In this document: positions 1 to 34,983 of the stretch, one piece after another
Position numbering within the stretch: position 1 is the first letter of the stretch
How the letters are laid out: the number at the start of each line of letters is the position of its first letter
NCBI GenBank assembly: GCA_052055015.1
Contig: JBQJIT010000042.1
Source: Malassezia furfur
Taxonomy: Eukaryota
DNA: 44,096 nucleotides
Reading direction: 5' to 3' (one strand)
The notes under the pieces: model-generated
Told to the model about the DNA's origin: nothing
What the model saw: the letters and a program-made list of their open reading frames with translations, nothing else
The model's database searches: none
Position numbers and translations under genes: made by a program

Positions 1-434
1 TGAACGAGTGGAAGGTCGTGTACTCGAACAAGGACCCTCGCAAGGAGGCCATCCCGTGGTTCTACGAGCACTTTGACCCCGAGGGCTGGAGCATTTGGCG
101 CTTCGACTTCAAGTACAACGACGAGCTCACCCATGTGTTCATGAGCAGCAACCAGATCGGCGGCTTCTTCACGCGTCTCGAGGCCACGCGTAAGTACGTC
201 ATGGGCACTGCTGGTGTGTTCGGCAAGGCGAACGACAACGTCATCGCGGGTATCGTCGTCCTCCGTGGCCACGACTGGAAGCCTGTCCTGAGCGCGGCCC
301 CCGACATTGACAGCTACGAGGTGACCCCGCTTGACCTCAACAAGCCCGAGGAGAAGAAGTTCTTCGAGGACATGCTTGCTTGGGAGGCTTCCGTGGACGG
401 CAAGGAGTGGGCCGACCAGAAGGACCTTAAGTAA
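1..434 (+). CDS. TEF4: Elongation factor 1B gamma, C-terminal EF1G domain (5' partial)
   Basis: EWKVVYSNKD..AIPWFYEHFDPEGWSIW..FKYNDELT..FMSSNQIGGFFTRLEA matches the EF1G domain. The frame is open from the window edge and codons are strongly C-ending. Confidence 0.92.
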   Translation, partial: NEWKVVYSNKDPRKEAIPWFYEHFDPEGWSIWRFDFKYNDELTHVFMSSNQIGGFFTRLEATRKYVMGTAGVFGKANDNVIAGIVVLRGHDWKPVLSAAPDIDSYEVTPLDLNKPEEKKFFEDMLAWEASVDGKEWADQKDLK

Positions 435-523
435 TTTCGTAGAACTTGAGTCTCTCCCAAATTAGGCCCTATTTGAGGTTGTGGAGGTCCCTTCGCATTA
501 TCGGATAAAGCGCTGCGACGTGC

Positions 524-21926: not shown

Positions 21927-23690
21927 CTATCCTTCTAGCTCCTCGTTCGTAGCCGGAACATCCGACTCTGAATCCGACTCGGCTGCGCCTTCAGCCTTGG
22001 GCTGCCCGCCCGGCGCCCGGCGCTGTTCGCCGAGGCGCAGAATGGCACAATCGGGGATGTGGCCCTCGGGGTTAAGGTACTCGCTGGGGTCAGTAGTGCA
22101 TGCCACGTACAAGTCGGGGCCCACAAACACGTCGAGGTAGTTGAGCCACTTGGCAAACTCGGCGGTGGCGTCTTCGGTGCGGTGGATCTCGTCATAAATG
22201 AAGGTCTGCTTGAACGCGTCCATCTTTTCCTGGAACTCGACAAAATCGACCGGCTCGCGCTTTCCGCCCTCCGCGTTCTCGGGCAGGGGCTTGGACGTGC
22301 CTGAACGCTGGGCAATCATACGGTCAATGCGCTCGTTGTTGTTGGCAACCTTGATGTTGTACCCGCCAAAGTGTGGCTCGACCAACAGCAGGCCGAGACC
22401 TGGCGCTTTTGGCACGTGGATCCGCGCCGGACCAAACGCCTGCGAAATGAGTGACAACGGGGCATTCGTACGTCCGATCAGCACCAGCAGGCCGATCATC
22501 TTGCGGATCTGATGCAGCATGAACGACTGGCCGTGAAACTTGACCGAGACCCACTCGGTGTCGTTAATAATCTTGGGATCCGAAACGGACAACTTCTTCA
22601 TGACACGATGCGAGCTTCGGTCGCGGAACTCCTTGCCGACCGTAAAGTTGTGGAAATTGTGCGGCCCCGTGTACATGTCGAACACAGAGCGCACGCGGGC
22701 CAACTCGTCTGCCGAGATGCGCCATTTGCGCTTGGCGTGCATGTCCTCAGCAAACTCTTTCTCGTAACCCTGAGCCTGCCAGAATGGATGGTTCAGCATC
22801 GCATTGTCGCGCACGGCGGGGTCATCCCACGGTGCGACGCTCGACTCACTGCTTTCCTCGCCGACATTAAGTCGGCGCAGCATCTTCCACATCGAGCTGT
22901 ATGGTTTTGGCGGGAGAAAGACGTAGGTAGGCAACAAGTACTCGTAAAGGCGCTCGTCGCAGCTCGTGCGTGCATTGAATGCGTTTTGAACGCGGCGCAT
23001 GCCCCAAATGCGGACGTGCGGGGGCAGCAGAGTATTCACGTATTCGGTTAGCGTCTGCCCTTCAGCCAGCACTGGCGGTTCCAGCATAAGCTTGGCCGTA
23101 AGCAGATTGCCAGCGGCATGTACACCGCGATCCGTACGCGCAGCTCGCTGCAGTTGGATTTTGTTCGGGTTGACAGCGTTTTCCTCACTGACAGCGCCTG
23201 CGCGGCAGAACGCGTCGAAGATATCGCCCTCGATCGTCTTTACGCCAGGATTGCTGTGTATGTTAGTGGCGTACGACATACATCTGGAGACCGGAGTAGC
23301 CCGAGCCGCAGTAGCCAAAAAAGATAGCCACTTTGCGTTTCTGTATGAGCACAAGGTGGGTTTACATACCGCCTGCCGGCCCTGACCCTCTTGGCTGGCC
23401 TGGGAATCGTTGCGGTCTTTCTTTTCCTGCACGGACGCATCACTGGATACAGCAGTTACCGCTGGGTGGGGGACCGCAGGTGCCGAAGCCGCGTGTGCAT
23501 CCTCAACCTGCGCGGCGTGCGATTTTTCTTCGGCGTTGGGCGCATTGACGGGCGGAACGTCTGGTTCTTTTTCGAGGAGTGGTGGCTGCACTTCCTCTGG
23601 CACACTGTGCGTGGCCTCACCCGAGTCAGTGCGCGCCGCCTTGGCCGCGGCGGCTGCCTCTTCTTCCCAAGCTGCTCCACGCTTGGACAT
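21927..23690 (-). CDS. PUS1: tRNA pseudouridine synthase 1 (TruA family), 4 exons
   Basis: KRKVAIFFGYCGSGYSGLQIN appears after removing introns 23341-23369 and 23254-23281. Also RAARTDRGVHAAGN, HNFHNFT, GQSFMLHQIRKM, PKAPGLGL. Third intron 22084-22110. Confidence 0.93.
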   Translation of the reverse strand: MSKRGAAWEEEAAAAAKAARTDSGEATHSVPEEVQPPLLEKEPDVPPVNAPNAEEKSHAAQVEDAHAASAPAVPHPAVTAVSSDASVQEKKDRNDSQASQEGQGRQAVCKPTLCSYRNAKWLSFLATAARATPVSRCMSYATNIHSNPGVKTIEGDIFDAFCRAGAVSEENAVNPNKIQLQRAARTDRGVHAAGNLLTAKLMLEPPVLAEGQTLTEYVNTLLPPHVRIWGMRRVQNAFNARTSCDERLYEYLLPTYVFLPPKPYSSMWKMLRRLNVGEESSESSVAPWDDPAVRDNAMLNHPFWQAQGYEKEFAEDMHAKRKWRISADELARVRSVFDMYTGPHNFHNFTVGKEFRDRSSHRVMKKLSVSDPKIINDTEWVSVKFHGQSFMLHQIRKMIGLLVLIGRTNAPLSLISQAFGPARIHVPKAPGLGLLLVEPHFGGYNIKVANNNERIDRMIAQRSGTSKPLPENAEGGKREPVDFVEFQEKMDAFKQTFIYDEIHRTEDATAEFAKWLNYLDVFVGPDLYVACTTDPSEYLNPEGHIPDCAILRLGEQRRAPGGQPKAEGAAESDSESDVPATNEELEG

Positions 23691-23702
23691 GTTCGTGTCG
23701 CG

Positions 23703-23709
23703 CACGTGA
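23703..23709. promoter_or_regulatory. CACGTGA E-box in the PUS1/DnaJ divergent promoter
   Basis: Lies in the 55-nt gap between the two ATGs. Confidence 0.5.
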
Positions 23710-23745
23710 TGCAACTTTACGGCGCCGCGTCTTTCACTGTCGCGA

Positions 23746-25275
23746 ATGTCTTCGGAGTCGCCGGCGGACGCCGCCAAGGAGCGCGGCAACACGCTTTTCA
23801 AAGCGGGAAAGTACCGCGATGCAGTACAGGCATATACAGAGGCGATTGCGCAAGACGAGAGCGGCGCACCGCTGCTCCTCCTGAATCGCGCAGCGGCATA
23901 CCTTGCCCTAAGTGACTACCGGAGTGGTGTCAACGACTGCCGCCTCGCGATCCAGAAACAGGGCAGCGAGCCGACTGCCAAGGCATTTACGCGTTTGGCC
24001 AAGTGCTATATTGGTCTCGGCGAGCTGTCGCTCGCTGCCGAGGCTGCGCGGTCCGCGTCGAGTGCAGCGAATGCGACGCCTGCCGAGCAGACGCAGGCCG
24101 TGGACGTGGGCAACCAGGTGCGCGACATCGAGAAGCACCTTACGAGCTTCCACAACTATATGCAAGAAAAGAACTGGACGCTTGCATCTATCGCTCTTGA
24201 TCAGGCACAGCGTGCGGCGAAGCTCACCGAGGCCTCTTCGCCCGCTGCGTGGAAGCTGCTGCGTGCGACACTGCAGCTGCAACGCGGCAACATTTCGCAG
24301 GCTCACTCGATTGCGATGGACATGTACCGTGCGGATCCAAACAGCACAGATGCGCTCCTGCTCGGTGCGCGGGTGATGCTTGCGAACAACGACGTCCAAA
24401 AGGCCGTGACGCAGGTGCAGGCGGCGCTGCGCAACGACCCCGATCGGGCCGATGTGAAACAGTTCCTGCGCAAGTGCAAGACGCTCGCATCGCTCAAGGA
24501 AGCGGCGAATACGGCGTTCAAGCAGAATCATACCGACGAGGCGCTCGCCAAATACGCTGAGCTCCTCCAGCTTGCGGACCAGGACACGGCGCGCGATGGC
24601 GACCCGAAGCGGTTCAAGGCGGTGATTTACTCAAACCGCGCCATTCTTGAGTCCAAGATGGGCGATTACACGGCGTCGATCGCCGACTGCACAACCGCGC
24701 TCGAGCTGGACCCGGGCTACACCAAGCCGCTTCGTACGCGCGCACGTGCGTACCTGAGCAACGAGGCGTACGAGGACGCCGTGCGCGACTTCAAAAAGGC
24801 GCTCGAGGAGAGCGTCGGTACTCCCGACGCTGACTCGCTGCGCCGCGAGCTGCGCCAGGCTGAATTGGACCTAAAGCGGAGCAAGAAGAAAGACTACTAC
24901 AAAATTCTTAACGTGTCCAAGACGGCGACCGAGAGCGAGATCAAGAAGGCCTTCCGCAAGGAGTCGCTTAAGCACCATCCCGACAAGGGCGGCGACGAGG
25001 AGAAGTTCAAGCTTTGCAACGAGGCCTACGGCGTGCTCAGCGACGCACAGAAGCGCCGTCGGTACGACTCGGGCGTGGACGACATGGACGAGATGGACAT
25101 GGGCGGCGGCATGGGCGGCATGGGCGGCATGTACGGTGGTATGGGCGGTATGGGTGGCATGGGGGGCGTCAACCTCGCCGACCTGTTCGGCCCGGGCTTC
25201 GCCAACTTCGACATGGGCCCGGGCCCAGGCGGCGCGCGGTACTCGACTGGCGGCCCCAGCTTCCATTTCGGCTGA
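23746..25275 (+). CDS. TPR-repeat J-domain co-chaperone (DNAJC7-like)
   Basis: TPRs ([28 protein letters not shown]), [17 protein letters not shown], Gly/Met-rich tail. Confidence 0.9.
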
Positions 25276-25283
25276 GCAACGAG

Positions 25284-27144
25284 CTATGTGGCGCGCGGCA
25301 GAAACGAGGAAATCTCCACCGAACAGCGACCGTTGCGTTTGCCTGGGTGAGTGCTCGCACGACGTACATAAAATCACACATTTGTCCTCCCAAAAGCGCA
25401 CAGCCCACACCGTGTCGCACGGTTCACATAGCTGGCGTAGGTATCGTCCTGTACGGGCATCCCAGAGCTTGACGAGGCCGTCGGCACCGCCCGTGACCAA
25501 GTACTTGTCGTTCATCTGCAGCGTCGACACGCTGCTGTCGTGCGCACACAGGCGGTATAGACACTCAAACGTCTTGAGCGAAAAGACAATCACGCGACCG
25601 TCACCGCTGCCGGAAGCCAACACATCGTTGTAGAGTTGTAGCTGCGCCACAACGTGCGTGTACCCTTGGAACACGGCCAGACACGCGCCCGTGTCCGCAT
25701 CCCACACACGCACCGTCGAGTCGCTGCTCCCCGCTACCACGTAGCGCCCGTCGAATGCGATGGCATAGATCTGCAGATGGTGGCCCTTGAGGATATGCAG
25801 GCACCGGCCCGTATCCACGTCCCAGATGCGGCATGTAAAGTCGTAGCTCCCGCTCGCGACACGGTTGCCCGACGTGTCCAAGCAGCGCACCGAGTGCTGG
25901 TGCCCAGCCAGGACATGCATCAGCTTGCCTTGCTCCAAGTCCCACACACGCAATGTGCCGTCCCGCGAGCCAGACACGGCAATGGGCCGCCCGTCTAGCA
26001 CCTGGACACACCGGATCGTCGAGGTGTGCCCACGTAGTACATGCTCGCACTCCCCGGTCGTCATGTTCCACACGCGCAAGAATCGATCAGAGCCTGCGCT
26101 GACTAGCAGCGTATCTGGCCGCCCCCAGCCGCGCGTGCGGCCGAGCAAGGCATCGCGCTCCCCGGCGCCCCACTGGGCGGCGTCGAGGACATCCGACAGC
26201 GCCACGCCGCGGCTTTCGTCCTCAAAGAGCGACAAACGTGCCGAACGCGCACGGTCTACAAATGCGCGTTGCATGCCGTCGGCGTGCTCCAAGCCAGGGA
26301 GCGACGCAGGGCACACGTTGGTGCCGGACGCAAGCATGAGGCACCATACGCCGCTCTCGTGGCCATTGAGTGTACGGATCAGCTCGCCAGTTCGTGCAGA
26401 AAAGACAAAGACGGTACGTGTGGTCATTCCCACGACGATGTAGTTGGCATCCATCGCACAACAAGTCAGTGCCAGCCGCCGGTTGGGATCGGGATTTGCA
26501 TCGGCCAATTCGTCGGAAATGTGCACCGTGAGCAGGCGGCCGGAGCGGAGCCAGTTGCGCTCCGTCAAGTAGGCCAGCTGAAAGTACTGTTTGAGTGAAA
26601 TGCGCTCGTGGGCGCCGATGCTCAGCGTTGTGGACGGCACACCTGACGCGTCGTACCGGAAGAAAGACGCGCGCCGGCGAATCCGCGGCGCATCCTCCTG
26701 CATGGGCTCCGCACGTGCACCAGATAGTTTGATGAGCGAGGTCAGCATCCATCGGAGCTTGGCCTGGGTATTGTATCCGTGGCGCACACATAGGTTGCCC
26801 CAGATATGTTCGTCATTCGCCAGCTGGTACCATGTCTTGCTCACAGCCGCCGCACGAGTGAGCGCGTACGGCTCCTCAAGGTGTTCCAGCACGTGCAGCG
26901 CAACTTCCATGGGGAACCGCTGCAGAAAGTCAACCTTCAGCTGCGGCCCAATGAGTGACTCGAGGTGGGACAGTTCACGAACGTTGCAGAGTGGCATCAG
27001 CGCCTCCAAAAATGCCATGCGAGTCGTTCCAGGCGCCGTTGAAAAATGCGCAAGTGCATCTTGAAGTGAAGTATCGCTTCCTGGAGGTGCACTCTCGCTG
27101 GCGGTCGCCATTAGCGCCCATCCAGCTCCATGGGCCCCCTCCAT
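25284..27144 (-). CDS. F-box/WD40 protein, Cdc4/Fbw7-like, 2 exons
   Basis: F-box DFLQRFPMEVALHVL..VSKTW; WD40 repeats GHTSTIRC, SGSRDGTLRVWD, GHQHSVRC. Intron 25343-25367 gives the C-terminus CKRNGRCSVEISSFLPRAT. Confidence 0.85.
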
Positions 27145-27261
27145 CGCGACGCGCGGTCCTAAAGTGCCAAGGTGACTGCTGACTCAGCGACGCGCGCGTC
27201 TTAACGGATTCTAGCTAACCAATCGTTACGGAAATTATCGAAGTGGGGAAATGAACGCGTC

Positions 27262-28178
27262 CTAGTCAATCGTCGGACGGGGGGCGCAGCAGCAGTCGTC
27301 CGTTGCCGCAGCGGAACGCGTGTTGATGGCAGCTGCCTCGCCTTCCACTGGCAGTCCAGAGGCAGCAGGCGTCACAGGCGCAGCTTCGGGCAACTTCGTT
27401 GGCCCCCGGTTATATTCATTAATCGTGAGTTGCGAGCCAGGAGAGCCACACGGAGCTTCGCCCGTGCACCCTGCCGTGGCACAGTGTCCGGTTGCATCGT
27501 AAGGAAGGGCGCCTAGCGTGTCCCACGATGCGATGAAGTGACCAATCATTGCGCCAAGAATCACCGAAATGAAGATGTACGCATTAAACGACATGATCGC
27601 AAGCATGATCAGGTACGCGCTCGTAAATTGGATCGCATACAGAATGGACCGAACGATTTGCTGGATCAAAGTCGGACGCAGGCGTATCGATTGTGAACGC
27701 GGCTCAAACGAGGGGTTGAAGATGGTGCCAAACGTGCGGCTCATGAGCGATGTTGGTGCGCTCGTAGCGCGGCGTTCCTGCTGGATAGGAAAAGCACCCG
27801 AGAAACCATTCCGCGAAAACTCTTCAGGGTATTTTTCGCGCTCCTTCATCAGCTGCTCGGTCGCATCGGCGATGATGTAACGGTCATATTCGCGGGCCCA
27901 CCGCCGAATAAACTCCGTCAACATCGCCCAAAATGCAAGACCCACACAGGATCCACCAAACTTGCCGCTATCGGTAATGTGCCAAGAAGGTGTCAACAGA
28001 CAAGTGCCAATCGTCTGCCAGTTGAACCTGGAGTTAGCCGAGAGACTTACAGCATGTTCATGCTCGAACAACCATTACCCGAGTGGTCCATATGGTCCAT
28101 ATGTCCCATGTCCATGTCACCCGAGTCCATACCTCCAGACGCATGGCGGTCGCCCAACCCATTCATGTTCCACGACAT
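27262..28178 (-). CDS. Ctr-family high-affinity copper transporter, 2 exons
   Basis: Met/His-rich N-terminus MDMGHMDHMDH, SMNML|FNWQT..C...SWHI across intron 28028-28050, MxxxM (MLAIM), GxxxG (GAMIG), CCC near the C-terminus. Confidence 0.9.
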
Positions 28179-28404
28179 CTCGTTGACGAGAGTGAGATAG
28201 AAATGGAGTCGTGCTTTTGTCTTCTAAGGCGCCCCCGCTCGGCGACTTTCCGAACAACTCGGTGCATAATTATTCGCACTGGCACCGAAAAGTCTCCGAC
28301 CAATAGGAACCCCTCGCGTGGCGATCCTCAAGCTTATCCCCCAACGAGCGTCCAACGCGCCAAGGCCAATGCGCGTGCAGGCGTGAAAACAGAGCGAGGG
28401 GTGC

Positions 28405-29964
28405 ATGATTCAGAAAGTGTTAATGGAATCAATTGCATTTCGTACACTAGCACCATATGGTGCATGGGAGTCACCCATCGATGAAGCGTCTCTTAACAAG
28501 GCAATCGTAACTGGACCCCATGATCAGTCTGTGCAGTTTCCTACTCAGGTATTGGCGGATTCGACAGGCTTTTGTGCGATTCCAGAGGGATTCAACAACG
28601 ATCCTGAACCCCTCACTTTCCCTACCCAACGACCAGATGGGACAACCTCACAGGGTCATGCGCTTTTCTATGCTCCGCAAAATCCTCGCTTTCAAGCATC
28701 TGCAGATACATTACCGCCCTGTCGTGTTATTGTAAATACTGGATCAACAGCCGATGGTTCTTTTGAATGTAATCTGGCCATTCGATACTGGACCTCGCGT
28801 GGATGGTCCGTGTGTATGGTGAACAGCGAAGCCGACCTAGAAAAAGGAAATGAGCGCGGTCAAGATCTCGATCAACAACTGGAAAAGGCCATACGCGACT
28901 GTGTTTCAGTCGCCTGTTATCTTGGTGGCTTGCCATTGCCATGGGCCAAGTTGGCCAAGAATGAGTCATCTCCTTACTCCTCGTTTCGTCTGTCAGAAAC
29001 GCAGGAAAACAATGGCGCTCATACCTTCACGCTAACGCGCAATTCTTTTCCCGTCAAAACCGATCTGCTAATTGCAGCTAGTGCCTGCTTGCTTGTTTCG
29101 GCAATTGCTTTTCCCAGATGGAATCGCATGATGTCTCTACTCGCTGGGTTTAGTTCCGCCCTGGTCGTTGTTTTCTTACGTGCATGCTTTCATGTCCAGT
29201 CAGGTATGTGGATGCCTCACACAGAAACCATCTCTGTCTTGCCATTCTTGGGTGTGACATTAACTACTCATCGAGGGTTTGGTATTCATGGTCTGTCCTT
29301 GATGAGTCGCACCGAGAGCACATTTATTCCGCGCGATACTATCCTGGACTTTGTCATGCTCGAAGCCATCCAGCGATGGCAGATTGTCGACTATGCCGCG
29401 TTGCTCACTCGTTCGCCAGGATACCCCGAGAATGAGAAAGTTTGCGTCGTGTTCCCTCATCTTTTCCCTCCAGTGTCTGTATACGTGCATGTCTACCAAA
29501 AGCTACATGGTGTCTTATTCGGACAAAAGATCAAACACTCGGCACGCGTCGATTCGGCCAAGATCTGTATAAGTGGGCATTCGCAGGATGGATGGGCTGT
29601 GCTGGGTGCGCTGCGAAACTACCCAGGTATTTTTTGTGGAGGGTACTGCGACTGGATCTCGGCTCCGATCCATTCGGAAATCAACCCGCAAACATACGAT
29701 TTTCAAGCCTCTACAATTCTATGCCAGCCTATGTTGACAACGAAAGCTGGGCAGGTGCCACTCCTTATGTGCCAACGAAATCAAGACGAGACGGCATCGC
29801 CGATGGCCGAAGCTGTACGTGCATATGGCGGTTCCCTTGAGAAGATCGAGCAGCCTCGTGGCAAAGAAAGAGATTTGCGTGGTACTGCCCGCGTCCAAGC
29901 GTTGCGCGCCGAAGTGCGTCATTTGGCCCGGGCGGCCGGGGTCGCCGAGCCATGGTCCGACTAG
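28405..29964 (+). CDS. GPI15: Chimeric protein: PIG-H/Gpi15 domain inserted in a degenerate S9 (acylaminoacyl/dipeptidyl peptidase-like) hydrolase
   Basis: PIG-H-like: two hydrophobic helices, then ETISVLPFLGVTL..STFIPRDTILDFVMLEAI..VVFPHLFPP..VYQ. S9-like flanks: APYGAWESPI, HALFYAPQNP, IRYWTSRGW, RVDSAKICISGHSQDG. In-frame intron 29204-29224. Confidence 0.7.
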   Translation: MIQKVLMESIAFRTLAPYGAWESPIDEASLNKAIVTGPHDQSVQFPTQVLADSTGFCAIPEGFNNDPEPLTFPTQRPDGTTSQGHALFYAPQNPRFQASADTLPPCRVIVNTGSTADGSFECNLAIRYWTSRGWSVCMVNSEADLEKGNERGQDLDQQLEKAIRDCVSVACYLGGLPLPWAKLAKNESSPYSSFRLSETQENNGAHTFTLTRNSFPVKTDLLIAASACLLVSAIAFPRWNRMMSLLAGFSSALVVVFLRACFHVQSGMWMPHTETISVLPFLGVTLTTHRGFGIHGLSLMSRTESTFIPRDTILDFVMLEAIQRWQIVDYAALLTRSPGYPENEKVCVVFPHLFPPVSVYVHVYQKLHGVLFGQKIKHSARVDSAKICISGHSQDGWAVLGALRNYPGIFCGGYCDWISAPIHSEINPQTYDFQASTILCQPMLTTKAGQVPLLMCQRNQDETASPMAEAVRAYGGSLEKIEQPRGKERDLRGTARVQALRAEVRHLARAAGVAEPWSD

Positions 29965-30162
29965 CCACGTGATGCTCATTTGTCAGCCATGGACCGTGCG
30001 CAGTTAGGCTCGGGAACGACACCATGCCGTGCGCGAGGTGTCATTCTGATTGTACGCACGCAGATAGCCCACCATACCCACCGCAATCATGTCCTATAGT
30101 ATACCAACCACTACGCCTGCATTAGGCTCTCTGACGGCGGCAAACGCCTGTGTCTAGGTCAT

Positions 30163-30170
30163 GTCACGTG
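30163..30170. promoter_or_regulatory. GTCACGTG E-box upstream of CDC55
   Basis: Intergenic; a second copy (CACGTGA) is at 29966-29972. Confidence 0.5.
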
Positions 30171-30323
30171 CAGGTCGGTGCCGGTGGACAGTGATCGGGC
30201 TCCGATTTTCGCAGGTGACCCCGTCCTCAGTGCGGCCGCTTCTTAGACGCGCGACGCGATCCAACGAAAGGCTTGCGGTTTTGTGGGTACGACACAAATT
30301 CGACACTTGGACGTGGTTAAAAG

Positions 30324-31882
30324 ATGGATCGTGACAGCACCAATGCAGCCCCGCCGGGCAATGCGTGGCGGTTCGCGCAATGCTTTGGTGACAAAGGTGA
30401 CGTGGACGACATCACGGAGGCAGACATCATCTCGACCGTCGAGTTTGACCCTACGGGCGATTACCTCGCTACAGGTGACAAAGGCGGTCGTGTCGTGATG
30501 TTTGAGCGCAGTGCGAGTTCATCGGGCAAGAAGCAGGGCTGCGAGTACCGCTTCCATACCGAATTCCAGTCGCACGAGCCCGAGTTTGACTACCTCAAAT
30601 CGCTCGAGATTGAGGAGAAGATCAACCAGATTTGCTGGTGCCGGCGGCAGAACGCTGCGCATCTGCTGTTGAGCACGAACGGTATGTCCAATTTGCTTAA
30701 CCAGACAAAACCATCAAGCTCTGGAAGGTGTTTGACACGCCTTTGAACGCCGTTGCGGAGGGCAGTCTGGCGACGGGCGAAGACCCATCGGCGATGCTCA
30801 TGTCAAGCCAGTCGATGGGCAACGAGAAGAGCGACGGGACACTGCACCCGAGCCTGCTCAAGCTCGGGGCATCGGGTGCGCAGGGGCTCGTGCCGAAGCT
30901 TTCCTCGGCACAGTCGCGTTTGCTACGGCTGCCACGTCTGGTGTACCACGACACGATCGTTGCAGCGGTACCACGGAAGATCTATGCGAATGCGCATGCA
31001 TATCACATTAACTCGCTGTCGGTCAACTCGGACGGGGAGACATACATCAGTGCGGATGACCTCCGCATAAACCTGTGGAACCTGGGTATCAGTGACAAGA
31101 GCTTTAGTATGTGTACCTGGCTGACCCAGACATTGTCGATATCAAGCCTGTGAATATGGAAGAACTCACCGAGGTGATCACTGCAGCGCAGTTCCACCCC
31201 TCCCATTGCAACGAACTCGTGTACAGCAGCTCCAAGGGCACCATCAAATTGGCCGACATGCGTGAGTCGGCGCTGTGCGACCGCCACGCCAAGTGTATGT
31301 TGCTCAACTGACGCAGTGTTTGAGGAAGAAGAAGACCCCGCAACCAAGTCGTTTTTCTCCGAGATCATCAGCAGTATCTCGGACGTGCGATTCAGCCACG
31401 ATGGGAGATACATTCTCTCGCGCGACTACCTCACCCTCAAGGTGTGGGACGTCAACATGGAGTCGCGCCCGCTCGCTACGATCCCAATCCATGACTACCT
31501 TCGCCCGAAGCTGTGCGACTTGTATGAGAATGACTGCATCTTTGACAAGTTCGAGGGCAACTGGGGTCCGACGGGCTCGACAGTGCTCACGGGCGGGTAC
31601 AGCAATTACTTCCACCTGATCGACTGGGAGCGCGATTCGAGCGTGGTGCTGCAGGCGGACAAGTCGGCGTTCAAGTCGAAGAAACTGGCATCGGCGAACA
31701 AGGCCAACGGACGCAACCCGGCCTCGGCGGGCGGTGTCGGTACGGTGAACCCGAACAACATCGACTTCAACAAAAAGATTTTGCATGCCTCGTACCATCC
31801 GCGGGAAGAGACGATCGCGATTGCGGCGACCAACAACCTGTTTATCTTCTCTGCAAACAACCCGGCAGGTGTGCCGGCGTGA
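30324..31882 (+). CDS. CDC55: PP2A regulatory subunit B55, 4 exons
   Basis: [76 protein letters not shown]. Introns 30682-30704, 31107-31129, 31295-31316. Confidence 0.96.
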
Positions 31883-31932
31883 CGCCCTCCTATGTATTCC
31901 CTTGTGCACTAGCCTGTCAACATTGGCCATAG

Positions 31933-34900
31933 CTATGCCAACCCTGCTTGTGTGGATGCCCACGGGGCACGCTGGATACGGTCCAGCAGCTGCCGCCGGT
32001 TATGCGTGTCGGCAAACAACGCACGGATCAGCGCCATGATCTCTTCGCGCCCGTAGTCCAACAATGCGCCGCCGCTTTCGAACACGAGGAACTCGATGTC
32101 CGCCAGCGAACCGGTGAGCAGCTCGGGCAGGTAGGAAAATTTGAACCAACTGGGCACCACGGTTGCGGCCAGTGCCCCGGCCGCCTCGGCGTCACAGCGT
32201 GCGGCCCGGGCAAACAGCGCGGTCTGGGCCTCGAGTAGCGTACGACACAATGCCGCCAGGCGCATGCTCTCCGCTTCACCAATGTCGTCCAAATCCTCGA
32301 CACTGTCTTGCACCCGCGCAAATACGCCGTGCACCAGCTCGCCCAGGAGCGAGACCAGCGTGTCTTGCGCTAAGACGGGTATCCACACGTTGGCGAGGTG
32401 CTGCAGGATATGATCGACTTGGGCCACCGCCCGCTCGCACATCGCGAACCGGGCGTCGTCGTCGGTGCGTGAGAACCCATCAGCTTGGTCGAGGCACTCT
32501 TGCAGCGCATACGTCTGCACGGCGATCTGCGCGTCGCGCCACTGAGCCCCTGTGTCTAGCATGGCCTGCGCCTCGTGGAGCAGCGCGGTGTGCAGCGAAG
32601 ATGCCCCGGACGATGCAATATCCGAGCAACTCTGGCGCTGCGCCATCGACCGCATCTCTTCGGCCAAGTAGTCACAGTCGCTCGCAAATAGCATGCTCAA
32701 CAGCGGAACATGCTGCAGCGATGCCGCGTGCACCGTTGGCATCAGCGCACGGTACAGCTGGAAACATGCGAGCACTGCCTCCTGAATGACCTGCACGAGG
32801 CGTGCATCGCTCGTGTGGGCGAGCTGTGCGAACTGCTGCTGTGCCTGCTGTGCCACGGCTTCACACCGCTGTGACACGACGCGCTCGCGCGTCACCACAG
32901 CCTTGGACAATTCAGGAGCGTCTTGGACGGGTGACAAGGGAGTAGGTTCCGGCAGCGGCGACTCCTCGTCGGGCTCATTCCAGTCCCATGCATCGAGCGT
33001 GCTATCGTCATGCATGGCCGGCGCCTCGGATGCGTGCGCTTCCGGGGTGGGCTTGGACGCGGAGTCCTGCGGCGTCGGAGAATCAACCCGCTCATCCTGT
33101 GCACCAAGCATGTCTTCAACCTCGTCGTCGCTGCCCCAGCCCCAGTCGCTCGCATCGTCCCGCGGCGGTGCCTGCGTCGCTGGAGTGGGAACGGTCGGGG
33201 GCGCAACGGGGCTAATCTCTGTTTCCCAAGCATCATCCAAGCCCCAATCATCCCGCGTTTGCTTCGGGAAAGCAGGATCCACTTGGTCCTTGTTATCACC
33301 AAAATCGTCGTCATCGCCCCAGCCCCAATCATCGTCTTGCGGCTCAGGTGCAGCAGGTGCCGGCGACGAGAGGGGAGGGGCGGCGGGCTTTGCTGCGGGC
33401 GTTGGTTTCGCGGCCGAAACAGGCACTGCGCCGAGTCGTTTAACACCTCCTAGCGTGGGCTTCTTGGACTTGGCTTTGGACTCTGGCTTTGGCACAGGCG
33501 TAGTCTGTGCTGCCGGCTGCGGTGGAGCCGGGCTCGGAGGCTTGACAGCAGCGATTGGTGCCGCCCGTATCTGGTTGCTCTCAGAGGCTTGGGGCTGTAC
33601 AGGTGCTGCCTTGGCCGCGGCCTTCGGCGCCACTTTGGCCTTGGGTGCTTGTGGCTGCGCCTCTTCCACTTGCTGCTGCACCATGACCGAGTCCCATGCT
33701 TTGTCGTCTGTGCGAAGGATTATTGCACGGACATGGTCGAGTACATCGCCCAGCACGCGTTGCGTGCAAATATTCGGCAGCTGCTCCGTCCACTGTCGTA
33801 AATCGGACAATGGCTCCATTGGTGCCCAACCGGGACGGCGAACCATGGTTCCCGCGGCCTTCGCTTCGCGCACATAGCCGTTCTCCACAAGCGCAGAATG
33901 CACCTGCAGCGCAAGCTGACTGACCGTCTCCACGGCTTTGTTGTAGGCATGCAGCGTCACGTCCGTGCGAGGCAGACACCGCAGCAGGTACGGTTTCAGT
34001 TCGGCGAGTAGCCGGGGCACGAAGCGCTGTGCGACGACCACCTGTAGCGTCGGAGCCAGACTCACGTCCTGTACCGTGGGCTTATCCTGGGCAGACGGGA
34101 CAAATAGGACGCTGCGAAGGAAGGCAAGCATATCGACCACAGCGGAAATGGCAGTGCCGGCCGGAGACGACGCAGGCTGCGCCGTAAACTGCAGCTGGGT
34201 CAAAATACCGTCAGCGGTCGTCGACTGTGCTGTGCTCCAGGAATGAACGTCCCCCAGGAGCTTGAGCGCAATGTGATCGACCAGCAGTGAGCTGATTCGC
34301 TCCGCGACAGATTCGTCCATGTTCATCGCTCGCGCAAACTCCCATAAATTGACTAGACTGGGAATGTTGGTACTCTCAGGATCCATGGTGCTCTCTTGTA
34401 CAGCCAGAATGGCTCCTTTGGATGCCGGGAACACTTGGATAGCCCGCTCCCAATCCGCATCCGCCTGCGTGTGCATCTGATGCAGGAGCTTTTGGCAGTG
34501 CTCTACCAGCCGCGCACCGACCACCGAATTTGACTGGGGACCATTACGCACGTCTTGCAGGCGGTTGTGCAGAAAGTCCACCTCAATGCCCACTGCCTGC
34601 AGATGTTCCTGGGCTTCGGGAAGCAACGCAGGGAGCCGCATCCAATCCCGCGCGTCCAGTGTAACCTGGAGCTCGTTTACGCTGTCCATCGCCGTAGAAA
34701 GCTGTGAAACGATTGTGGATACCGTCGAAGTATACGTGTAGTGCGCAGTTGCTTGGGCATAGTCATGTAAGGCGCTCACCAGGTCGTCGTCCAACTCAAT
34801 CGACCGAGGATCCTCCACGGGCTGGGACGTTGCCGCCGGCGTCCCGGACGCCGCGAGCGCTTCAATCCGCGCACCAAGTAATTGCACGACAGCTGAAGCA

Positions 34901-34983
34901 GGCAGTGTTTTCTGCGCCTCGCCCCCCGCTACGAGGGGCGAGCCGACCGACGCGAGGAACACGCCCACGTCCTCGGCGCCCAT
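31933..34983 (-). CDS. DSL1: Dsl1/ZW10-like retrograde tethering subunit
   Basis: Central acidic Trp motifs (DDDWGWGDDDDF, DDAWE, DWGWGSDDE, DAWDWNE). ZW10-like C-terminus: LSMLFASDCDYLA, EDLDDIGEAES, VPSWFKFSYLPELL..SLADI, LIRALFADT..R. Confidence 0.8.
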   Translation of the reverse strand: MGAEDVGVFLASVGSPLVAGGEAQKTLPASAVVQLLGARIEALAASGTPAATSQPVEDPRSIELDDDLVSALHDYAQATAHYTYTSTVSTIVSQLSTAMDSVNELQVTLDARDWMRLPALLPEAQEHLQAVGIEVDFLHNRLQDVRNGPQSNSVVGARLVEHCQKLLHQMHTQADADWERAIQVFPASKGAILAVQESTMDPESTNIPSLVNLWEFARAMNMDESVAERISSLLVDHIALKLLGDVHSWSTAQSTTADGILTQLQFTAQPASSPAGTAISAVVDMLAFLRSVLFVPSAQDKPTVQDVSLAPTLQVVVAQRFVPRLLAELKPYLLRCLPRTDVTLHAYNKAVETVSQLALQVHSALVENGYVREAKAAGTMVRRPGWAPMEPLSDLRQWTEQLPNICTQRVLGDVLDHVRAIILRTDDKAWDSVMVQQQVEEAQPQAPKAKVAPKAAAKAAPVQPQASESNQIRAAPIAAVKPPSPAPPQPAAQTTPVPKPESKAKSKKPTLGGVKRLGAVPVSAAKPTPAAKPAAPPLSSPAPAAPEPQDDDWGWGDDDDFGDNKDQVDPAFPKQTRDDWGLDDAWETEISPVAPPTVPTPATQAPPRDDASDWGWGSDDEVEDMLGAQDERVDSPTPQDSASKPTPEAHASEAPAMHDDSTLDAWDWNEPDEESPLPEPTPLSPVQDAPELSKAVVTRERVVSQRCEAVAQQAQQQFAQLAHTSDARLVQVIQEAVLACFQLYRALMPTVHAASLQHVPLLSMLFASDCDYLAEEMRSMAQRQSCSDIASSGASSLHTALLHEAQAMLDTGAQWRDAQIAVQTYALQECLDQADGFSRTDDDARFAMCERAVAQVDHILQHLANVWIPVLAQDTLVSLLGELVHGVFARVQDSVEDLDDIGEAESMRLAALCRTLLEAQTALFARAARCDAEAAGALAATVVPSWFKFSYLPELLTGSLADIEFLVFESGGALLDYGREEIMALIRALFADTHNRRQLLDRIQRAPWASTQAGLA

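Follow-up and report, generated by a model that had tools for sequence, protein, structure and literature searches.

The puromycin hydrolase of Streptomyces morookaensis (3azo) and the puromycin-hydrolyzing peptidase of M. tuberculosis (7c72) are S9 peptidases that consist of a beta-propeller and an alpha/beta-hydrolase domain. DPP6 and DPP10 are catalytically dead S9B proteins that serve as auxiliary subunits of Kv4 channels; they keep the propeller, carry a single N-terminal anchor, face the cell exterior and have lost the catalytic serine. PIG-H of mammals and its yeast counterpart Gpi15 are known as free-standing proteins. PIGH is described in one study as essential for the glycosylphosphatidylinositol (GPI)-N-acetylglucosaminyltransferase (GPI-GnT), with an unclear specific function, and the enzyme as acting on the cytoplasmic face of the endoplasmic reticulum (ER) (PMC7125958), and another presents an AlphaFold3 model in which PIGH lies partly in the membrane and partly in the cytoplasm and associates with PIGQ and PIGA (PMC12182360). 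Here we describe a gene that nests a PIG-H protein in an S9 peptidase. Within a 44,096-nt stretch of the Malassezia furfur genome (contig JBQJIT010000042.1 of assembly GCA_052055015.1; hereafter, the window), a single open reading frame (ORF) encodes a complete PIG-H/Gpi15 module inserted into the degenerate catalytic domain of an S9 peptidase (Table 1). We consider it probable that this gene encodes the lineage's PIG-H/Gpi15 subunit and that the S9 relic borne by this subunit is folded but catalytically dead and faces the cytosol at the ER. The nested S9::PIG-H architecture appears to be new, its components (a PIG-H subunit and an S9 pseudo-peptidase) being of known kinds; literature searches over openly accessible full texts returned no paper that describes the combination.

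The stop-free frame extends from 28387 to 29964, with its first ATG at 28405, and reads in three parts, as an initial annotation made from the sequence alone had proposed. Every motif quoted there was located at its place; APYGAWESPI lies at 28450-28479, PEPLTFPTQ at 28603-28629 and IRDCVSVACYLGG at 28891-28929. We refer to the window's protein as P0001, to its database relatives as P0002-P0052 and to metagenome loci with fused relatives as L001-L005. The nearest relatives are a 519-aa database protein of 99% identity (P0002) and proteins of 88% (P0003), 69% (P0004) and 66% identity.

The middle part of the frame is a PIG-H protein. Pfam PF10181 matches residues 276-351 with a score of 46.9 bits (cut-off 25) and E 2.4e-12, covering positions 2-67 of the 67 in the profile, and a Kyte-Doolittle scan finds exactly two hydrophobic segments in the entire protein, at residues 216-239 and 242-264, both just N-terminal to this domain and separated by a 5-residue turn, in agreement with the two transmembrane helices and PIG-H-like domain first recognized here. 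When residues 176-379 were compared by phmmer with 1.84 billion cluster representatives, 42 matches were obtained at E <= 1e-3. The insert can be aligned over nearly its whole length with stand-alone PIG-H proteins of 170-200 aa, which are themselves covered almost end to end (insert residues 55-203 with residues 45-185 of the 186-aa P0032, and 34-196 with residues 29-180 of the 193-aa P0043), so a whole PIG-H, not a fragment, is embedded in the frame. Among matches of all lengths, fused proteins rank first and stand-alone proteins appear from E 4e-9, at no more than 40% identity; a search aimed at shorter relatives of the insert yielded no close short form, its only match being part of a fused protein cut off by the end of a contig. 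AlphaFold2 predictions were made on whole proteins (P0001 and the intact relative P0009), and in the model of P0001 the insert comprises a beta-hairpin (194-212), two helices (219-235 and 241-262), a beta-domain (273-349) and a final helix (357-371). Read by eye, the same beta-hairpin starts the stand-alone PIG-H proteins P0022, P0023 and P0027. The insert is thus like PIG-H/Gpi15 in its PF10181 domain, its two-helix hairpin, its N-terminal beta-hairpin and its near end-to-end alignment; unlike the free-standing proteins, both of its termini continue into alpha/beta-hydrolase halves. As a side observation, P0001 and P0002 differ at four residues (193, 230, 241 and 343; window 28981-28983, 29092-29094, 29125-29127 and 29431-29433), which fall in the linker, the membrane helices and a loop of the domain, all within the insert and none in the S9 relic, and are too few to interpret.

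The two flanks derive from an S9 peptidase, as also suggested at the outset, and alignment to relatives, the split match of one of them and the fold of the window model all point this way. Relatives of 36-69% identity carry Peptidase_S9 matches that are split around PIG-H. Those of P0006 (857 aa) and P0007 reach about 137 bits (E ~1e-40) in two stretches on either side of PIG-H, and in P0004 the equivalent of the C-terminal half scores 24.7 bits against a cut-off of 22.6, together with PIG-H. Compared with solved S9 peptidases, P0006 matches 7c72 at E 1.9e-65 and 3azo at E 1e-61 (phmmer), and these two are the top matches for the host peptidase by both sequence and structure. The match to 7c72 is interrupted exactly at the insert (query residues 504/704 against chain residues 528/535), so ~200 residues take the place of a loop of ~6 residues. 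In all fused relatives the insert sits at one site, between 'DCVxxAxYLGG' in helix aB and 'ARVD..ICxxGxSxGG' in strand b5 and the nucleophile elbow; the architecture is, as had been claimed, a domain insertion and not an end-to-end fusion. At the far N-terminus, the strand 'APYGxWxSPI' is common to the window's protein and both solved peptidases. In the alpha/beta-hydrolase topology, the aB-b5 loop and the nucleophile elbow lie at opposite ends of the central sheet. An insertion at this site could leave catalysis undisturbed, in keeping with the intact triads and the low ratios of nonsynonymous to synonymous substitution (dN/dS) in most fused forms.

The earlier suggestion that the split halves could refold is supported by structure prediction. 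The AlphaFold2 model of the window's protein, built from a 39-row alignment, has a mean predicted local distance difference test score (pLDDT) of 79.2 and a predicted template modelling score (pTM) of 0.66, and VIA-align superposes it on 7c72_B with Z 25.5 and a root-mean-square deviation (rmsd) of 3.0 over 257 aligned residues (model range 13..519); for 3azo, Z is 24.9. Plain Foldseek returned S9 and related hydrolases only, at TM-scores of 0.19-0.35 that are low because the alignment ran across the insert, a problem that VIA-align resolved. Both halves, together with the APYGAWESPI strand, are predicted to form one S9 catalytic-domain fold. The model of P0009 (pLDDT 85.4, pTM 0.81) covers 618 of the 645 residues of 7c72 with Z 39.6 and rmsd 2.1, and gives Z 38.4 with 3azo; with its insert at ~507-715, P0009 is modelled as a whole S9 peptidase plus the insert. 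The two-helix hairpin returns the chain to the side from which it started, so both hydrolase halves share one side of the membrane, which by homology with PIG-H would be the cytosol. A hydropathy scan of the host peptidases found neither a signal peptide nor a further hydrophobic segment.

While the fold appears to be kept, the peptidase itself has decayed. The beta-propeller is missing, as first noticed: relative to the alignment with P0006, P0008 and P0009, the proteins P0001, P0003 and P0004 show gaps over ~350 propeller columns and have a ~40-residue linker after the N-terminal strand, while in P0005 (383 aa), which begins at the equivalent of window residue 136, the propeller region is simply absent from the record. 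A divergent Ctr gene (whose 5' exon and intron were read by eye) begins only ~240 bp upstream of the start codon, which leaves no space for a missed upstream exon. The motifs HGGP and GSTGYG lie around the oxyanion site. Intact relatives and P0008 keep HGGP or HSGP together with GSTGYG, whereas in the window clade the former has become NTGS or STGS and the latter SE[AG][DE].... The His-motif region, EQPRGKERDLRGTAR, in which a replacement by GKERDL had been noticed at first, holds no histidine at all, the aligned residue being E or R depending on the alignment. The nucleophile elbow, which had been described as altered, is so only in part: the serine is kept in GHSQDG, where the sole departure from GxSxGG concerns its second Gly, and P0004 reads GHSQGG. 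With the His, HGGP, GSTGYG and the propeller all gone, peptidase activity has probably been lost and the protein would be a pseudo-peptidase, as the initial annotation had suggested.

To place this decay among the fused relatives, the catalytic triad was scored in 28 fused rows, of which 19 are intact, 8 broken and 1 truncated. The broken rows are the four window-clade proteins and P0014, P0017, P0018 and P0052. On a tree made from the insert columns only (27 rows; P0016 was dropped as too short), the broken triad needs 4 changes (bootstrap 5-95%: 4-4), and well-supported branches force at least 2. Shortening and catalytic decay of S9::PIG-H proteins thus appear to be recurrent across lineages. 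Two of the other decayed proteins differ in what they retain: P0052 (588 aa, from a cluster of 194 members) keeps Ser and Asp, has lost the His and has only the last propeller blades, and P0014 (346 aa), which belongs to a lineage separate from both the window clade and P0052, has lost the Ser and has no propeller.

Several points weigh against the reading of this protein as a PIG-H subunit with a folded and dead S9 relic. In Pfam at E <= 1, Peptidase_S9 was not matched by the whole protein, and the flanks taken separately (aa 1-175 and 374-519) matched no family; of the profile check proposed for the three segments, the PIG-H part stood and the S9 part did not, and the S9 origin is therefore shown through relatives and fold. 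The alignment given to AlphaFold2 included intact S9 relatives and may bias the relic toward that fold, and model confidence is low at aa 39-54 (in the linker), 263-267, 374-378 and 442-446. Neither phmmer with the insert nor a profile of 18 PIG-H sequences found a solved PIG-H structure against which the insert's fold could be checked. The GC content at third codon positions (GC3) of the nested gene is 0.483 (0.377 in the N part, 0.520 in the insert and 0.557 in the C part), far lower than the 0.63-0.83 of 15 other genes in the window (2881-40085), which could reflect weak expression or relaxed selection. The orthologues in L001, L002 and L005 have a GC3 of 0.46-0.51, near that of some of their neighbours, and the nested gene of the window seems to have been slow to follow an increase in GC across the genome. 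Finally, Ser393 and Asp461 are retained in all four window-clade members and in P0052, and some residual or altered hydrolase chemistry may persist in the relic.

This last point bears most directly on an alternative that we consider unlikely, namely that the relic is a working pseudoenzyme or altered enzyme that binds a peptide, a lipid head-group or a partner at GPI-GnT, or hydrolyses through Ser-Asp and another base, such that retained function, not mere foldability, explains its conservation. That decay in P0052, an independent event, spared the same two residues speaks for this alternative, but the His, HGGP and GSTGYG are all lost in the window, and in P0014, P0017 and P0018 the Ser itself is gone, which argues that no common residual chemistry is conserved. 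Sequence conservation can be read in both directions. Between P0001 and P0004, identity is 75% in the N-terminal lead, 71% in the N-half, 59% in the linker and membrane helices, 82% in the PIG-H core and 63% in the C-half, which puts the relic segments (63-75%) not much lower than the PIG-H core, the most conserved segment (93% between P0001 and P0003). On the other side, conservation is lowest in the C-terminal part of the relic (57%). Each of the four clade members has an open frame, and the relic appears to be still constrained. The model also suggests that the in-frame deletion of the propeller left a foldable domain, and DPP6 and DPP10 offer a precedent for dead S9 proteins that act as non-catalytic subunits of membrane complexes. 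Like them, the window's protein would keep an S9 fold that has outlasted its catalysis and has a non-enzymatic place in a membrane protein complex. Unlike them, it has no propeller, its anchor is an inserted hairpin module of another family, its relic is predicted to be cytosolic and the residue that it lost is the His.

The same architecture had been proposed as something to look for in relatives, and it was found widely. Both PF00326 and PF10181 are present in 12 of 19 proteins scanned with Pfam, the full-length ones having 811-950 aa; a further search added the fused proteins P0049-P0051 (774-935 aa) and P0052, and the co-occurrence of the two families is already contained in the precomputed Pfam annotation of the database relatives. 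A metagenome locus scan, queried with an 8-sequence alignment, returned 13 loci, five with fused relatives (L001-L005) and eight with plain S9 genes that match the N-half only. The fused genes of L001, L002 and L005 each consist of a single ORF without interruption (894-985 codons), and in these loci the order pseudouridine synthase, F-box/WD40, Ctr, fused gene, B55, ZW10 is the same as in the window (tblastn); L003 and L004 agree as far as they reach. The shared gene order makes the window gene the positional orthologue of the intact S9::PIG-H gene, and it is thus a decayed counterpart of intact fused genes of 840-985 aa with a propeller and a Ser-Asp-His triad. P0006, P0009, P0012, P0013, P0020, P0021, P0024, P0028, P0049-P0051 and the proteins of L001, L002 and L005 share the insertion site of the window's protein at 36-48% identity. 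They differ from it in having a ~350-aa propeller and the full catalytic apparatus, and the window clade (P0001-P0005) is a shortened, catalytically broken derivative. Compared with 3azo and 7c72, the insert is the only difference in the intact fungal relatives, whereas the window's protein has lost the propeller, the His, HGGP and GSTGYG and adds a 204-aa membrane module in the aB-b5 loop. The S9::PIG-H architecture is thus old and widespread, and most fused relatives are, by their sequences, intact peptidases. Between L001 and L002, dN/dS is 0.18 in the N-terminus and propeller, 0.05 in the N-half, 0.12 in the insert and 0.26 in the C-half; the intact fused forms are under purifying selection in all four parts.

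To examine how often the fusion arose, a tree of the PIG-H core was built from 39 rows. In this tree, the window's protein belongs to a supported clade (98/96) of 18 fused rows, and a second fused group (P0020, P0024, P0025 and P0028) is sister to the stand-alone P0023 (98/91), so that the label 'fused' needs 2 changes. The insertion site is identical in both fused groups. A single insertion is therefore favoured, with P0023, a stand-alone PIG-H of 183 aa, as the product of one later fission of the nested gene, unless this protein represents an incomplete gene model.

We next consider whether the frame is made and used as one protein, as the preferred reading would have it. It is very improbable, in our view, that PIG-H is produced separately through an internal start, splicing or proteolytic release, with the S9 flanks as untranslated or discarded remnants. 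The 383-aa P0005, which starts at the equivalent of window Met136, would suit such an internal start, but this record stems from a 2.4-kb contig and may be partial, and no Met occurs between aa 136 and the PIG-H beta-hairpin, the others lying inside or after the membrane helices. The unusually low GC3 of the N part would also suit it, but the N part is open and 71-75% identical across species, and dN/dS in the intact relatives is 0.05-0.26 in all parts. As to splicing, the sole GT/AG pair seen by eye at the insert boundaries removes 607 nt, which is not a multiple of three. An excisable insert ('exitron') was considered separately and rejected, as this pair is out of frame and has a poor splice consensus.

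We give equally little weight to the possibility that the whole gene is a decaying leftover, with Gpi15 function provided by another, stand-alone PIG-H gene elsewhere in the genome. The nearest protein-atlas clusters of the insert are stand-alone PIG-H proteins of ~200 aa, mostly with Basidiomycota labels (score 0.86-0.87, a lead only), and the stand-alone P0023 groups with the second fused clade; however, the nearest relatives of the insert are all fused and no close short form was found. Low GC3 would suit such a leftover, but the frame is intact in four diverged relatives and in the 99% variant, and the PIG-H core is the best conserved part (82-93%). On the preferred reading, the gene would be the only PIG-H of the cell and would be expressed over its whole frame as one product that belongs to the GPI-GnT complex.

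The following course of events would account for a dead relic around a PIG-H subunit. In an ancestor, a cytosolic S9 peptidase of the puromycin-hydrolase type would have received a PIG-H module once, in its aB-b5 loop, which is on the other face of the domain from the active site. Most descendants would have kept the full peptidase, with propeller and Ser-Asp-His triad, and these intact proteins may be ER-tethered peptidases that double as the Gpi15 subunit. In the window lineage, the peptidase would have become dispensable and decayed, losing the propeller through an in-frame deletion and, in addition, the His and the two motifs of the oxyanion region. This would have left exactly the pieces needed for the alpha/beta fold, namely the N-terminal strand and both catalytic-domain halves. 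The relic would persist because it flanks an essential insert and must co-fold on the cytosolic side rather than aggregate.

More broadly, and only tentatively, a fungal clade (probably basidiomycete, to judge by the atlas cluster labels and the overall appearance of the genes) may have PIG-H only as a module within a cytosolic S9 aminopeptidase, which in most members would be an active peptidase built into the GPI-initiating complex; the peptidase would have been lost about four times, leaving foldable relics because the insert cannot be freed, a ratchet caught at several stages. If true, this would connect a peptidase of the puromycin-hydrolase type with GPI initiation in Rosetta-stone fashion, a link that may hold non-covalently where the proteins are separate, and the intact fusions suggest a testable connection of an S9 aminopeptidase with GPI initiation. 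The series from intact forms through propeller-less and His-less proteins (window clade, P0052) to Ser-less ones (P0014, P0018) would illustrate how an essential insert forces retention of a dying host fold. The termini of PIG-H, clamped to a cytosolic domain of 30 kDa (window) or 75 kDa (intact relatives), would limit the positions of the PIG-H ends in the complex, and the same domain could be used as a natural handle in purification or cryo-EM. If the organism is a yeast associated with skin or plants, its GPI subunit would be lineage-specific, essential and unlike the free-standing PIGH of the host, and thus a possible target difference.

Table 1. Features of the nested S9::PIG-H gene and its upstream neighbour in the window.
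Feature	Positions	Strand	Basis
Whole gene: S9 relic with nested PIG-H module	28405..29964	+	Single open frame, 519 codons + stop; relatives of 99%, 88%, 69% and 66% identity
S9 N-terminal segment (APYGAWESPI, aa 16-25) and ~40-aa linker in place of beta-propeller	28405..28602	+	Alignments; pLDDT <50 at aa 39-54; VIA alignment from residue 13
S9 catalytic N-half: strands b1-b4, helices aA and aB	28603..28929	+	Motif tables; 71% identity to P0004
HGGP degraded to NTGS	28735-28746	+	Motif tables
GSTGYG degraded to SEADLEKG	28825-28848	+	Motif tables
Complete inserted PIG-H/Gpi15 module, aa 176-379, opening with conserved LPLPW linker	28930..29541	+	phmmer; alignment boundaries; 504/704 split in P0006
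PIG-H N-terminal beta-hairpin, aa 194-212	28984..29040	+	DSSP strands 194-200 and 206-212 (model)
Membrane hairpin: hydrophobic helices aa 216-239 and 242-264 with short PRWNR turn	29050..29196	+	Kyte-Doolittle scan; model helices 219-235 and 241-262
PIG-H beta-domain (predicted cytosolic) and C-terminal helix, aa 273-371	29221..29517	+	Pfam PF10181 at aa 276-351 (29230-29457)
S9 catalytic C-half	29542..29961	+	Motif tables; P0004 equivalent matches Pfam Peptidase_S9
Nucleophile elbow GHSQDG with Ser393 (29581-29583)	29575-29592	+	Motif tables
Asp461 (in QRNQDE, 29773-29790)	29785-29787	+	Motif tables
His motif replaced by RGKERDL, no His	29857-29877	+	Motif tables
Ctr copper-transporter gene, divergent conserved upstream neighbour, marks 5' limit	27262..28166	-	Pfam Ctr E 2.3e-19

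The window resembles a compact, GC-rich, intron-poor segment of a fungal chromosome. Pfam identifies among the neighbours an M24 peptidase, an RRM protein, a Myb protein, a SNF2/RING helicase, an ABC1 kinase, a pirin and a Plus-3 protein, as well as pseudouridine synthase, F-box/WD40, Ctr, ZW10-like, LSM, Kelch and PP2C-like proteins. The Ctr gene also lies upstream of the intact fused genes in L001, L002, L004 and L005. Read by eye and compared with the Ctr ORFs of L001 and L002, it has an apparent 5' exon at ~28050-28166, encoding a Met/His-rich N-terminus, and an apparent short intron near 28040-28075 with a GTAAGT donor. Downstream of the nested gene, a gene for a B55-type PP2A regulatory subunit (30321-31882, + strand) is split over at least 2-3 frame pieces (30321-30746, 30701-31153 and 31178-31882), which implies introns in this otherwise intron-poor stretch; two of the pieces, tested by Pfam, matched no family at E <= 1e-5. 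The six-gene collinear stretch shared with the metagenome loci L001, L002, L003 and L005 covers 21927-34983 of the window, and its proteins are 28-85% identical to their metagenome counterparts, B55 being the most conserved (75-85%) and S9::PIG-H (36-39%) among the least.

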